Assembly: GCF_988242995.1 (NCBI RefSeq)
Contig: NZ_OZ547043.1
Reading direction: 5' to 3' (one strand)
DNA: 64,000 nucleotides
Position numbers: made by a program
In this document: one piece after another, positions 24,001 through 30,000 of the stretch
Numbering within the stretch: the first letter of the stretch is position 1
Layout: every line of letters starts with the position of its first letter

Positions 24001-27000
24001 CAATGTTGGTTGACCAGACAAAACTCCACGCGCCTTTAATGTGTCGGGCAGACTCAAACAGATTCAATTTGAAGGCGTTATGGATATTTCTGCGGCGTAA
24101 TTCGCGCGCGGCAAACCACCAGTACATGGTGCCGCCAACCAGATTCGACACGTACCAGGCAATAACAAAACCCGCAAAACCAAAGTCAAAATACCAGGCT
24201 ACGACGCTCCCCGCTGCGCGCAGAAAAGGTTTCGTCGCTTGCTGTACAGCAATTAGATCGAAGCGATCTACCGCACGCAGAATGCCGGTCGGCGTGGAGG
24301 AAGCCATTGAAGGAATGAGCGTGCAATACAGCGCGGCCAGCCAAAAGCTTTGGTCATCCAGACCTAATGAATGGGAAAGAAAAGGGAGTAAGGCAATGCC
24401 GCCGACAATCGCCACCGCGCCGCTGACGATATCCAGCGAGAAGGAAAATGAGACGACATTGCGGAATTGCTGCGGATTATTGTTGGTTAATGCTGGTGTT
24501 CCGTACTGCACCACCAACTGCCATGTCTGAAACTTAATAAAATCGCTGATCGACTTGGCGTACGATTGCACAATCACCAGTACGCCAAACATGGCGGGCG
24601 TCATCCCTTTACCGGCACACGAGAGCGCCAACAAACCCAGCAAGGCGCTCACGACATTACTGGAGCCTAACCAGGCGCTATTGCGAATAATGGTGCGAAA
24701 CGCGCCATCTGCAAACCAATGTTTGATGTTAAAACCCGCCAATTCAGCCTGACCTTATCGTTGATAGTAAAAAGTATCCCGCCAGCCTTAAGTTAAACTT
24801 CGGCGGTCAGAAACGATGGCAACCAGAGAAACCGCCTTCTGTGCCTGTTCCAGCACCTCGCTGTAAGGCGCTCTGGAATCAATCTCAAGAATTTTTGTGC
24901 CGTTATAGCCAATCGTCGACATGACGCCGATTTTGTCCTGCAGCTCGGCATAGTCATGGTCAGGCTTGCGGGAGATGGCAGTATCAATATCAATCCCCAA
25001 GCGAATGATTAATTCAGGACGGTATTGCGCCATTTGTTGGTATAAACGCCGTTCGCGCTGCGCCAGAAACATGCTGATTTTCCCGGTCGCACGTTCGACG
25101 CCGATCCCCGGTCCGTCATAATAAAAGCCCGAAATTTCAGCCTGCGGGAAGCGATCGCTGACCACCAGAACGCCACTTTGCGCCAGTCGCTGAACCTTGC
25201 GTAGATTCGCCATTCTTCGCAGCGAGAAGCAGTACATAATCACCGCCGCCCATAGCGCTGGAGATTTGGTTTTCATGCTTTGGGTTTTCGAGGATTTGGC
25301 CGCCAGTCGCCGTTCGAGCCAGACGCCAACCAACGGCAATCGTTTGATTTTGTCGCCGTCTTCGCCGGAGAGCAGCCCCAAATAGCGGCGCTCGGTTTGC
25401 CAGTGTTGTTGCAGCGATTTCACCAGGTCGGTGGTCAGCGTGGATTTACCGGTGCCATCACACCCGACCACCGCAATCAGCCCCGGAATGTAGTTGGGCT
25501 GCGGCACGGTTGTACTATTAACAGTTTGTGTTTGTAGTGCATCCATTCGTTAAATCATCCCCTATCCATTTTGGTGATCAGGAAAGCGCGGCGTGAATTG
25601 CGCGTAGTGACGCTTGCATAATTTCATCGGCTGGTTGCCGACCATCCAGTTCAAGGATCCTGGCGCCATTGAATGTCAGTTGCGGCGTAACGGCGATTTT
25701 TTCCTGTAACGCCGCCAGTTGATGGTCAGGTTTACGCGAAAACGCGGTTTGTTCATCAATGCCAAGACGAATCAACAATACGGGCAAATAAGACGCCATC
25801 CATTGGTACAGCTTCAGCTCGCGCTGCCTTAACATTTTTATCCAGCCGTTACCGCCCGTGGTTTTTGCCAATTGCGGGCCATCAAAGCGAAAACCCGGCA
25901 CTTCAACCTGCGGGTAGCGGTCGGTGATGAGCAGATAGCCTTGCTGGCTTTTACACAACATTTTGCGAAACTTGTACGCCCGCCAGCAGGAAAGCAGATA
26001 GATAACCAGCGCAGTAATATTGCCAGGCGGTGTTAAGGGCTTTTCGTGCACATGTGCCGCTTTACTTCGCAAATAACGCCCAAAAGGTGCGCCAATAACA
26101 GGGAGCTGTGAAATCCATTCGCCAATTCGCCCGGACGATTGCCCGAGATAAATGTGTTCTGTTGGCATTGTTGCTGCCAGTTCATTTACCAGGCTTGCCG
26201 TGAGGGTCGATTTACCTGAACCATCACATCCTACAATGGCAATAACACGCACTGGCGTGGAATTAATTATTGACATATTACGTTGATTCACGAAAAACCC
26301 GGCAGCAAATAATGTATTGAATATTACGTGGTCCGTGCTCAGAATATCCGTTCAACCTTATTGTGACAATGGTTAATTGTGACATTGACCTGAATTACGC
26401 TTTCATAAAAACATATTAACCAAATAAATATTTTTAATGGATATTTAAATTAAAGGATATATTCATGCAGTCAATAACACCTCCATTAATTGCCGTTATT
26501 GGTAGCGATGGTTCAGGCAAGTCAACGGTGTGTGAACATCTCATTACCGTTGTCGAAAAATATGGTGCTGCCGAAAGAGTTCATTTAGGAAAACAGGCCG
26601 GAAATGTCGGTCGTGCAGTGACAAAATTACCGTTGATGGGAAAATCCTTACATAAAACAATTGAACGAAATCAGGTGAAAACAGCAAAAAAATTGCCAGG
26701 ACCAGTTCCGGCGCTGGTAATTACAGCGTTTGTCGCCCGTCGCTTACTGCGCTTTCGTCATATGCTTGCCTGTCGTCGTCGCGGGTTAATTGTTCTAACC
26801 GACCGTTATCCTCAGGACCAAATTCCTGGCGCTTACGATGGTACAGTGTTCCCGCCTAACGTTGAAGGCGGCCGGTTTGTCTCATGGCTGGCAAGCCAGG
26901 AACGTAAAGCGTTTCACTGGATGGCGAGCCATAAACCTGATCTGGTCATCAAACTCAATGTCGATCTGGACGTGGCCTGCGCGCGTAAGCCTGACCACAA

Positions 27001-30000
27001 AAGAGAATCGCTGGAAAGGAAGATAGCCATAACGCCACAGTTAACCTTTGGAGGCGCGCAACTGGTTGATATCGATGCCAATCAACCGCTGGAACAAGTG
27101 CTGGTTGATGCGGAAAAAGCGATTACGGATTTTATGACCGCGCGTGGTTATCACTAGTCAAAAATGGAAATGCCCGATCGCCAGGACCGGGCATTTTCAG
27201 GAAGGTTAAATCAACTGCAATGCTATCCAGTACAACCCACCAGAAAGAAAAATCGCCGCCGGTAAAGTAAACACCCACGCCATCAGGATGCTGGTTACCG
27301 TTTTACGCTGTAACCCACCGCCGTCCACCACCATCGTCCCTGCTACCGCAGACGAGAGGACGTGTGTTGTGGAGACGGGCATCCCAATATAACTGGCAAG
27401 GCCGATAGACACTGCCGCCGTCATTTGTGCCGCCATGCCTTGCGCATACGTCATGCCGCGCTTACCAATCTTCTCACCGATGGTCATCGCTACACGACGC
27501 CAGCCAATCATGGTGCCAATGCCGAGCGCCAGTGCTACTGCCATGATGATCCACACCGGAGCGTACTCAATGGTGCTTAACATATCGCTGCGCAGTTTTT
27601 TCAGCAGGTTCTGGTCTTCTTTACTGACGCCTGGCAGTTTCGCCAGCTTCGCGGAGGTATCAGAGATGCACAGCATAATGCGGCGCAGCTGGCTGCGCTG
27701 ACTCACGCTTAACGGCTCGTAACTTTCCATATTGCCTGGCAGCATCGTTTTAACGCGCGCAATCGCATCAAAGGTATTTGCCGGATGACAGTGAAACTCC
27801 GTTACTTGCGTACCATCAGTCGATGCCGCAGGCAATGGAGGTTCCATCGCAATCAACTTCTGCGGCAGTTCAGGATGCTGTTGCAGGTAGTGTTCGAAGT
27901 TGGTGACGGCATCGCGGGTACGGGTAATTTCATAGCCGGACGCATTCATATTGACGACGAAACCAGCAGGGGCAATCCCCACCAGTACCAGCATCACCAG
28001 GCCGATCCCTTTCTGCCCGTCGTTAGCACCGTGCGAAAACGCCACGCCCGCAGCGGAAACAATCAGCGCAATACGCGTCCAGAATGGTGGCTTCCGTTTG
28101 CCTTTTTTCTTTTTGCGATCTTCCGGAATGCGGTGAATACGGTCACGCTTTTTCGTCCCGCTCCAGTAGCGGCGCAGCAGGAATATCAGGCCTCCCGCAA
28201 TGACCAGGCCGACGATAGGGGAAACAATCAGCGAGGAGAAAATTTTGGTCACTTCACGCAGGTTTAACGCATCCATCACCGATGAGCCGGTTAACAGCGC
28301 GTTGGTTAAACCGATGCCGATAATCGCACCAATCAAGGTATGCGAACTGGAGGCCGGTAAACCAAAGAACCACGTTCCCAGGTTCCAGATAATCGCCGCC
28401 AGCAGCATGGAAAAGACCATCGCCAGGCCGTGAGTTGACCCCATATTCAGCAACAAATCGGTTGGCAACATATGGACAATGGCATAGGCAACGCTAAGTC
28501 CGCCTAGCAATACGCCAAAAAAGTTAAAAAATGCCGCCATCACCACAGCAAGTTGTGGTTGCATGGCACGAGTATAAATAACGGTTGCCACCGCATTCGC
28601 CGTATCATGAAAACCATTGATTGCTTCGTAGAACAACACAAATGCCAGAGCAAGTAATAACAAAAGCCCCGTGAATATATCAAGGCCAACAAATAAATTT
28701 AGCATATATTAGATTACGCCATTTTGAATTTACGAACGGACGCATTATCAGTGACTTTAACGGCGTGGGCAAAGTGAAATATCATTTTTAAACGATAAAA
28801 AGAGTGTTATTTCTTGTGTATCAGATAATAAGCATTCATTCAAAACCTTTAGAAATAATCAAAACACAGGCATTCCACTGGTTAATACATTCACACATGA
28901 AATGAATAAATATTTGAATATATAAATATTGAATATTTTGATTAATCCCCGCACTGATTATTCTTCATAATCAGTGCGGGGTTGCTACAACATGTATTAC
29001 TCTTTCACCACAATTAACGGTTCAATATCACTCTCTTTTTTAATGACCAGTGATTCATCACCGCGCAAACACGTCCCACCGTAGTTGCCGCCAACGGTGA
29101 AGGTACATACCTGAATGTATTTACCGTCCACTTTCGGCAAACACCACAGTTGCTGATAGATGTTTTTCTGCTCGGCAAATTTACCGCTGGTTTTGTCCAG
29201 CACCTCTTCATGATGGCTGACGAGGTCGATGTTACTGCCACAGCGACCAGCGATCGGTTTCACTGCATAACCGGTTTTCACCAGTTCATCATTCACGGAG
29301 AAATCGGTATCCAGCAGGTAGCGATGGTGCGGGAACAGCGACCAGAGGATCGGCAGAATCGCTTTGTTGCCGGGGATCACCGTCCACAGCGGCTCAAAGA
29401 CCAGCACTTCCGGGCGCAGCAATACGTCGATAAGACGCACTTCATTTTGCGGATGACCGGTACGGATCGGCACCGCAGCAAACTCACGGTCGCTAACTTC
29501 ACGAATCTGATCAAACGCGGTTTCCCACGCCCAGGTTTTCCACACGCAGTTAACCAGTCGCCCTTCCCCATCAATCAGTTGCCCGGCAGCATCCCAGCCC
29601 AGTTCATCCAGCCCGCGCAAGATACGCGTTTCAAAGCCCGCCTGGTGCAGCGCCTGCTCCATAAACTGCGCGTGATAGTTTTCCTCGATATCTTTGTCCT
29701 GCATGATATGGACAAACGGACGTGCACGACTGTGTTTCCAGGCACCAGCCAGTTCGTTAATCAGCCCTTCCGCCGGATTGAAGCCGTTGCCTTTATAGCC
29801 CTGCTCCGCCCAACGTTCGAGGATCAAGCCCGCTTCGGTATGACAGGAGGCGGAATCGGCGTTGTATTCGTAGACCTTCAGGCCACGTTCGTCCATACAG
29901 AAATCCATACGACCGGTGATCATATGGTGACGGCGACGCTGCCAGGAGAGACGCAAACGTGGCCAGAGGATTTTTGGGATGTCGAACAGCGCCAGCAGGT

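Follow-up and report, generated by a model that had tools for sequence, protein, structure and literature searches.

Bacterial sphingolipid synthesis has recently been worked out up to ceramide, and the chemistry of the head group is known mainly from Caulobacter (CpgA–D) and the Bacteroidetes. Here we describe three adjacent genes, yghR, yghS and yghT (the trio), in a 64,000-nucleotide stretch of an Escherichia coli chromosome (contig NZ_OZ547043.1 of RefSeq assembly GCF_988242995.1; hereafter the window), where they lie beside a ceramide synthesis locus. Judged from sequence and conserved surroundings, they are the strongest candidates for the enzymes that assemble the E. coli sphingolipid's head group. 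They are predicted to have the fold of small-molecule P-loop kinases, and they form a distinct, uncharacterised subfamily of the thymidylate/nucleoside monophosphate (NMP) kinase fold whose genomic role is newly recognised. The nearest functional analogy to the role proposed below is LpxK, the lipid A 4'-kinase; this P-loop kinase acts on a membrane lipid on the cytoplasmic side, after which the lipid is flipped and exported in an Lpt-dependent manner.

In Caulobacter, the first phosphorylation of the head group is carried out by the ceramide kinase CpgB, a member of the diacylglycerol (DAG)-kinase/LCB5 family (PMC10331486). CpgB, CpgC, CpgA, CpgD and the products of further genes make up the ceramide diphosphoglycerate pathway (PMC11324152, PMC12275187), in which CpgD provides a case of soluble head-group activation in a sphingolipid locus (PMC12275187). 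Caulobacter LptF2/G2 are required for sphingolipid export and bind the housekeeping LptB (bioRxiv 10.64898/2026.04.12.717747). The likeness to the E. coli locus is one of setting, as CpgB is also encoded in a sphingolipid locus beside spt, bacterial ceramide synthase (bCerS), CerR, LptF2/G2 and a MOP-type flippase (PMC10331486, PMC11324152). The proteins themselves differ: CpgB carries a GGDG motif and belongs to the DAG-kinase/LCB5 family, whereas the trio are P-loop proteins. Homology of the trio to CpgA, CpgB or CpgC was rejected, these being respectively CDP (cytidine diphosphate)-alcohol-transferase-like, of the DAG-kinase family and CDP-DAG-synthase-like, and none of them a P-loop protein; nor did any of the trio match a DAG-kinase family in Pfam or NCBIfam. 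Neither a CpgA–D homolog nor a glycosyltransferase was found in the E. coli locus by RefSeq annotation and an NCBIfam scan, so that the trio and a conserved protein of 274 residues (Hyp274) are the only unassigned soluble proteins there.

Five ceramide genes of E. coli B have been characterised biochemically, the aasR-cerR-acpR-spt orthologs being ECD_02851-02854 of BL21 (PMC9386255). The locus of E. coli UTI89 is drawn in a 2026 preprint, the available part of which gives no role to yghR, yghS or yghT (bioRxiv 10.64898/2026.04.12.717747). Searching the literature for the three genes and for the head group of the E. coli sphingolipid turned up nothing beyond regulon lists and tables from screens; yghS is listed as up 3.1-fold on SlyA over-expression in K-12, in a table of largely cryptic genes (PMC5797941). 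As far as this search shows, the link between the trio and sphingolipids is unpublished.

Fold and family of YghR, YghS and YghT

Positions 20000–30000 of the window match many complete E. coli genomes at 98.9% identity. Three open reading frames (ORFs) occupy exactly the interval, 24788–27157, to which the initial annotation had assigned three paralogous kinase-like genes, and they match the annotated E. coli genes as follows:

24788–25546, minus strand: yghR, 252 residues, predicted P-loop kinase of thymidylate-kinase-like fold, member of the 'R' orthogroup; Walker A motif at 28–36, DRF at 131–133, RKPDH at 193–197
25578–26291, minus strand: yghS, 237 residues, GTG start, 'S' orthogroup; leads the minus-strand operon, 31 bp upstream of yghR
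26465–27157, plus strand: yghT, 230 residues, 'T' orthogroup; divergent from yghS

The three products align by BLASTP over nearly their full length (R/S 42%, E 2e-62; R/T 34%, E 3e-48; S/T 36%, E 2e-53), a similarity far greater than chance would give. Regular-expression searches bore out the motifs on which the initial annotation had been based: a Walker A sequence (GCDGTGKST in YghR, GCDGSGKST in YghS, GSDGSGKST in YghT), a second motif (SDRFPQ in YghR, TDRYPQ in YghS and YghT) and a third (SRKPDH in YghR and YghS, ARKPDH in YghT). The ABC signature, searched as [LFY]SGG[QE], is absent from all three. The arrangement of two tandem genes and one divergent gene is also as described, the tandem pair being yghR and yghS, both on the minus strand, and the divergent gene yghT. 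The full family signature carried by the trio reads G-[CS]-D-G-[ST]-G-K-S-T, L-G-x3-G, L-P-x2-G, D-R-[YF]-P-Q, D-G, R-K-P-D-H ... K. None of the three contains a hydrophobic stretch of membrane-spanning length. The ratios of nonsynonymous to synonymous substitution rates relative to K-12 are 0.05 for yghR, 0.20 for yghS and 0.02 for yghT, and the genes are under purifying selection within E. coli.

Family models place the trio only distantly. The best NCBIfam model is TIGR00041 (deoxythymidine monophosphate (dTMP) kinase), with scores of 30.9, 25.1 and 25.1 bits, below its cut-off of 83.25 bits. No significant Pfam family was found, save for a marginal match of YghR to AAA_22 that covers the P-loop alone (independent E-value 9e-4); matches to PF02223 were weak (independent E-values 0.025–0.43). 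When a profile of 101 diverse homologs was searched against PDB sequences, thymidylate kinases were the best solved relatives (E 4.6e-10), the alignment falling into three blocks: the P-loop; a helix arginine (YghR R111) with the DR[YF] motif (D131, R132); and strand 4 with the basic/LID region that contains RKPDH. The AlphaFold2 model computed on the 101-sequence alignment has a predicted local distance difference test score (pLDDT) of 91.9 and a predicted template modelling score of 0.87; an earlier model on a three-sequence alignment was poor (pLDDT 61.6) and was not used. The 48 top Foldseek matches in the PDB are all thymidylate kinases (best E 2e-7), followed in the structural comparison by deoxyadenosine kinase (13.8) and then by adenylate kinase, the ribosylnicotinamide kinase domain of NadR, and gluconate, shikimate and adenosine 5'-phosphosulfate (APS) kinases. 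The trio thus combine the NMP-kinase fold with a P-loop, a DR[Y/H/F] motif and basic residues of the LID region. The small-molecule kinase-like fold, first suggested by the DRY-type motif, is supported by the model, the Foldseek search and the PDB profile search alike, and the nearest folds are those of kinases, not of non-kinase NTPases.

Thymidylate kinase (TIGR00041/PF02223; PDB 5x7j, 4dwj, 2plr, 2wwf) is therefore the nearest fold, but the differences are considerable. The conserved PQ that follows DRY, D144-G145, E165 and RKPDH are specific to the family of the trio. A segment of about 40 residues (YghR 57–97) was left unaligned to thymidylate kinases in the profile search; it has a model confidence of 68–83 and its own invariant residues (G57, G61, P71, G74), and it appears to stand where thymidylate kinases have their nucleotide-binding part, between strand 2 and the helix ahead of DRY. 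Structural scores below those of the thymidylate kinases were obtained for deoxynucleoside kinases and further small-molecule P-loop kinases (2jas, 2ocp, NadR, gluconate, shikimate and APS kinases, chloramphenicol phosphotransferase), in which no substrate-binding motifs shared with the trio were detected.

RefSeq and UniProt name yghS, yghT and their homologs dTMP kinase or thymidylate kinase. That these are bona fide dTMP kinases agrees with those names, with the weak TIGR00041 and PF02223 matches and with the best fold matches. It is nevertheless hardly credible: the scores are about a third of the cut-off, no Pfam match is significant, some 160–170 of 252 residues (about 165) superpose at 16–19% identity, and the trio constitute three co-conserved orthogroups within a lipid locus. 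An essential tmk is, moreover, present elsewhere in E. coli. That the trio belong to the dTMP kinase family is accordingly not supported, and the name is most likely an over-annotation, a probable error that is propagating in RefSeq and UniProt. Two further assignments were set aside. ABC-transporter ATPases match over the P-loop alone, the signature is lacking and kinases provide the best folds; for the P-loop proteins of anti-phage defence, PADLOC gave matches of P-loop length only (E 2e-4 to 6e-3).

Three ancient orthogroups

A scan of one genome per species gave 80 loci, or 85 with those fetched separately, and 60 of the 85 hold exactly three family members. The 52 position-labelled loci all have the layout T<- ->S R, with a single divergent gene ahead of a tandem pair. 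For 216 domains we built a neighbour-joining tree without support values, the perfect agreement between labels and clades serving as the control. The R, S and T labels, given by position alone, fell into three clades without mixing (52 of 52 in each). These clades cover the Enterobacterales, Xanthomonadales (Dyella, Rhodanobacter, Luteibacter), Carnimonas, Methylotenera, Sulfuritalea, Gallionellaceae, Nitrotoga, Sphingobium, Sphingopyxis, Novosphingobium and several uncultured gamma- and deltaproteobacteria. The triplication is thus old, having given three orthogroups as opposed to recent, interchangeable copies.

In each clade, G28, D30, G31, G33, K34, T36, G57, G61, P71, G74, R111, D131, R132, P134, Q135, D144, E165, R193, K194, D196, H197 and K205 (YghR numbering) are 94–100% conserved. 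Because the catalytic-type residues are retained in every clade, YghR, YghS and YghT are probably all active enzymes with separate roles. Natural fusions join S to R (P0121, and the Nitrotoga loci L072 and L075) and, in P0122 and in P0030 from Oecophyllibacter, T to an R-like domain, which points to a physical or sequential coupling of the trio members. Such S-R and T-R fusions would predict hetero-dimers with the build of the homodimer of thymidylate kinase.

A conserved neighbourhood of flippase, Hyp274 and sphingolipid genes

The typical locus has one R, one S and one T gene beside a MOP flippase gene and hyp274, usually near spt. In the window the annotated order is glcDEF - glcC - yghO - aasR - cerR - acpR - spt - lptG/lptF paralogs - ytfJ-like - hypothetical - yghQ - yghR - yghS - yghT - pitB - gss - yghU - hyb. 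The lipid locus noted in the initial annotation is thus there, with yghO (bCerS), aasR, cerR, acpR and spt all annotated. The neighbours of the trio are:

12745–15326, minus strand: yghO, bCerS, split by an IS4 copy at 13684–15109
15671–19785, plus strand: aasR - cerR - acpR - spt, ceramide-precursor operon (RefSeq annotation)
19820–20980, minus strand: lptG paralog (LptG2), TIGR04408, E 1e-91; the RefSeq-equivalent start is probably near 20899 (annotation of strain HYM1)
20896–21966, minus strand: lptF paralog (LptF2), TIGR04407, E 4e-95; candidate sphingolipid exporter permease
21997–22560, minus strand: YtfJ-family gene, TIGR01626, E 5e-63
22569–23393, minus strand: hyp274, conserved 274-residue protein; its start overlaps the yghQ stop
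23393–24742, minus strand: yghQ, 449 residues, flippase of the MOP/Wzx type, separated by 45 bp from yghR and downstream of it

The genes yghS-yghR-yghQ-hyp274-ytfJ-like-lptF2-lptG2 form a tight minus-strand unit, with intergenic gaps of about -80 to 45 bp, that converges with aasR-cerR-acpR-spt. In RefSeq the Lpt paralogs of this region (19820–22560) bear the plain names 'LptF' and 'LptG'.

Co-occurrence was counted within 10 kb of the trio in species loci with full 10-kb flanks (34 from Enterobacterales, 20 from other proteobacteria), a distance that under-counts genomes with scattered sphingolipid genes, such as those of sphingomonads:

Enterobacterales: spt 34/34, pitB 5/34, YghQ 32/34, Hyp274 32/34
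Other proteobacteria: spt 10/20, pitB 0/20, YghQ 14/20, Hyp274 12/20

Since pitB, the other E. coli neighbour, is rare, the link with spt is more than inherited local gene order. The closest conserved partners of the trio are YghQ, which is the most widely conserved, and Hyp274. The association withstands rearrangement: Serratia liquefaciens has the same 13 genes in a different arrangement, with the two units co-directional and yghT still divergent, and Sphingopyxis has an operon S-R-T-yghQ-hyp274. Relatives in the AlphaFold database were found in Sphingobium, Novosphingobium, Zymomonas, Acetobacter, Gluconobacter, Commensalibacter and Azotobacter, all of them known or predicted sphingolipid producers.

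Outside the enteric bacteria, the loci contain further lipid genes. An OlsC/LpxO-like acyl hydroxylase (E 2e-65) occurs in 25 loci, an LmtA-like lipid-phosphate O-methyltransferase (E 6e-34) in 12, and two PAP2 lipid-phosphatase families in 15 and 7; these fit a phosphate-bearing lipid product. GT4 glycosyltransferases occur in 6 non-enteric loci, and an RND pump with a NodT-type outer-membrane factor in 9. Examples of non-enteric loci with such genes, among them also one for an uncharacterised protein of 169 residues, are Methylotenera L052 (5701–12195), L071, L061 and L022 (8059–9120), and in one Pseudomonas genome bin a lipid kinase of the DAG-kinase family is encoded directly upstream of the trio.

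YghQ matches the NCBIfam MOP flippase family weakly, and its Serratia ortholog contains the Pfam domain Polysacc_synt_3. Hyp274 accompanies the trio and YghQ from the Enterobacterales to the Sphingomonadales and Acetobacteraceae, and has about 22 invariant residues, mostly charged. It has no match in Pfam, NCBIfam, PDB sequences or PADLOC. Helical motifs rich in Arg, Lys and His suggested a CHAD (polyphosphate-binding) domain, and one UniRef entry is labelled 'CHAD domain-containing', but this was not supported: the hhalign probability is 0.2% against E. coli YgiF and 0.1% against a 14-sequence YgiF-CHAD alignment, and the Pfam CHAD model matched 1 of 20 members at E 0.089. A relationship to the NTP_transf_5 domain or to the kinase domain was likewise rejected (hhalign probabilities of 1% and 0.2%). 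Hyp274 may be the missing transferase of the pathway or a scaffold. The YtfJ-family gene is found in trio loci of Enterobacterales only (0 of 38 non-enteric loci).

The wider family

An exhaustive profile search returned 2163 clusters (50% identity) at E<=1e-3. Many of the wider-family proteins have about 500 residues. The C-terminal half of these, homologous to YghR, YghS and YghT (hhalign probability 100%, E 2e-75), comes nearest to the T clade, and the N-terminal half consists of an NTP_transf_5 domain of nucleotidyltransferase fold (PF14907), detected in 9 of 25 members at E<=0.001. These fusions (e.g. P0164 and P0171) thus share with the trio a homologous, T-clade-like domain, which is encoded beside a Polysacc_synt flippase; they differ in the added N-terminal domain, in being single copies and in their setting in glycan loci. 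The neighbourhood of P0164 itself (DUF3373, a Ser/Thr kinase, a phosphoesterase) was uninformative, and the P0261 fusion lies on a contig too short to show its context.

Such fusions would suit a 'phosphorylate, then nucleotidylate or transfer' route, in which the trio would be kinases of nucleotides or small metabolites that supply a soluble, activated head-group precursor (a phospho-alcohol, or a compound of the NMP or nucleoside diphosphate type) and do not act on the lipid. The nearest solved folds do act on soluble nucleotides or metabolites, the three proteins are soluble, and CpgD sets a precedent for soluble head-group activation in Caulobacter (PMC12275187). However, unless it is Hyp274, no transferase onto ceramide can be recognised in the E. 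coli locus, the dTMP kinase model gives 25–31 bits against a cut-off of 83, and the nucleotide-binding segment of thymidylate kinase appears to be replaced by the family-specific insert. We regard a purely soluble substrate as unlikely.

The kinase domain is also fused to a MOP flippase (P0215, P0261) and to a GT4 glycosyltransferase (P0249), and wider-family genes stand directly beside a Polysacc_synt flippase gene in Wzx/Wzy polysaccharide loci (including L089 and L090), some with sulfotransferases. The flippase fusions and this adjacency indicate that the pairing of kinase and MOP flippase is older than the link with sphingolipids, and yghR-yghQ is that pair in E. coli. The same observations, together with the absence of an ATPase of their own for LptF2/G2 in the locus (no LptB or LptC paralog was found there), would also fit ATPases that power or regulate transport, be it flipping by YghQ or extraction by LptF2/G2, and that are not kinases. 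Against this stand the NMP-kinase fold, the DR[YF] motif and the LID-type Arg/Lys residues, with neither an ABC signature nor an ABC or motor fold. MOP flippases, moreover, are ion-coupled. The Caulobacter LptF2/G2 bind the housekeeping LptB (bioRxiv 10.64898/2026.04.12.717747). A role of the trio as transport ATPases is improbable.

The polysaccharide loci raise another alternative, namely that YghQ serves a glycan or polyprenyl-phosphate pathway of which the trio are part, the tie to the ceramide genes being solely a shared envelope island. The contexts of the Oecophyllibacter protein, P0249 and P0171 are polysaccharide loci (GT4, Bac_transf, Wzy_C, Polysacc_synt, sulfotransferase), and GT4 genes adjoin the trio in a few loci. 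The loci of E. coli, Serratia and Methylotenera, on the other hand, have no glycosyltransferase, initiating transferase or polymerase, and the co-location with spt outlasts both rearrangement and a large phylogenetic distance (Spt 55–60% identical). To a link through location alone we give little credence.

Proposed role in head-group synthesis

On balance, we lean towards the view that YghR, YghS and YghT are three non-redundant, soluble, cytoplasmic, ATP-dependent kinases that phosphorylate ceramide or a phosphorylated head-group intermediate, the product being flipped by YghQ and exported by LptF2/G2. This view is built on the fold, the retained catalytic-type residues, the antiquity of the three orthogroups, the gene fusions, the conserved surroundings and the lack of any other head-group enzyme in the locus; from these we infer that the proteins act as kinases, what their acceptor is, in which order the steps run and that the product is flipped. 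The proposal of the initial annotation, phosphorylation of the lipid or its head group, is in this sense strengthened but unproven.

The pathway would begin with Spt, AcpR, AasR, YghO (bCerS) and CerR, which would produce dihydroceramide on the cytoplasmic side of the inner membrane. Next, one or more phosphates would be added to ceramide or to a phosphorylated head-group intermediate by the three kinases, which probably either assemble into an S-R-T hetero-complex or act one after the other, to give an anionic phosphosphingolipid. The MOP flippase YghQ would flip this product, and LptF2/LptG2 would hand it on towards the outer membrane.

In thymidylate kinase, the arginine of the helix before DRY and that of DRY itself both bind the acceptor phosphate. 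Both are invariant in the trio family (YghR R111 and R132), so by analogy the acceptor may already bear a phosphate, and at least some of the steps may phosphorylate an existing phosphate to form a pyrophosphate linkage. Taken further, the product would be a ceramide with an oligophosphate head group (pyrophosphate, triphosphate) or with several phosphates, each enzyme adding one and at least one of them adding it onto a phosphate, before Wzx-like flipping and export by the Lpt paralogs. This particular product is a tentative and rather unlikely form of the proposal.

Several observations weigh against a role in sphingolipid phosphorylation. Members of the wider family lie among glycosyltransferase and sulfotransferase genes in ordinary Wzx/Wzy polysaccharide loci, and the role of acceptor could therefore ancestrally have fallen to a glycan, to a polyprenyl-linked intermediate or to a soluble precursor in place of a lipid. 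In half of the non-enteric loci (10 of 20) spt is missing within 10 kb, and about 540 complete E. coli genomes have the trio without the spt operon. Some relatives come from taxa with the CpgB ceramide kinase pathway of the Caulobacter type. As the three proteins have no membrane anchor, a lipid substrate would require peripheral association or a partner. The literature search found no paper showing a phosphosphingolipid, or any sphingolipid under laboratory conditions, in E. coli, and knock-out data on the trio from K-12 are uninformative because this strain lacks the ceramide genes.

Within the enterobacterial-type locus, no head-group enzymes other than the trio appear plausible, and the three co-inherited orthogroups range from the Enterobacterales to the Sphingomonadales, Acetobacteraceae, Xanthomonadales and Methylophilaceae. 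If they phosphorylate ceramide, they would represent a third, unrelated kind of ceramide kinase. Should the oligophosphate product be real, most E. coli strains and many other proteobacteria would possess, in silent form, a route to a strongly anionic sphingolipid of the outer membrane that resembles lipid A; an anionic outer-membrane lipid would matter, in pathogenic E. coli, for sensitivity to polymyxin, for the robustness of the envelope and for recognition by the host.

Intergenic regions, distribution in E. coli and disruption by insertion sequences

Two intergenic features flank yghT:

26292–26464, no strand: spacer between yghS and yghT, 173 bp, AT-rich (GC about 0.41 in the 26000–26499 composition window)
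27168–27196, no strand: hairpin with a 12-bp stem between the convergent stops of yghT and pitB, terminator-like

The spacer is presumed to be the promoter region in both directions, and the hairpin looks like a bidirectional terminator shared by yghT and pitB. Promoter and terminator scans of 24600–27400 gave counts not above those of shuffled controls, and the single promoter-like site in the spacer (minus strand, 26369–26341) was not above chance.

Of 5426 complete E. coli genomes, 4604 carry the trio and 4067 (about 75%) the spt operon. Any match to the trio was found in 4743 of these genomes, and about 680 have no match.

In K-12 MG1655 (L086, 3125000–3140000), an IS5 copy lies between yghO and a 3'-truncated yghQ (1068 vs 1350 nt); aasR, cerR, acpR, spt, lptG2, lptF2, the ytfJ-like gene and hyp274 are absent, and yghR, yghS and yghT are orphaned yet intact. 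Having deleted the locus, K-12 cannot reveal its final lipid.

In the window, yghO is split by a 1426-bp element of the IS4 family (13684–15109) with 18-nt terminal inverted repeats, whose 448-residue ORF matches the IS4 transposase model (E 3e-89). The target duplication is a perfect 13-bp direct repeat, CAACTATCTGCCC, at 13671–13683 and 15110–15122. Because of this interruption the ceramide pathway is probably inactive in the window strain, in which the kinase trio is intact. In strain HYM1, yghO is intact, at 1143 nt.

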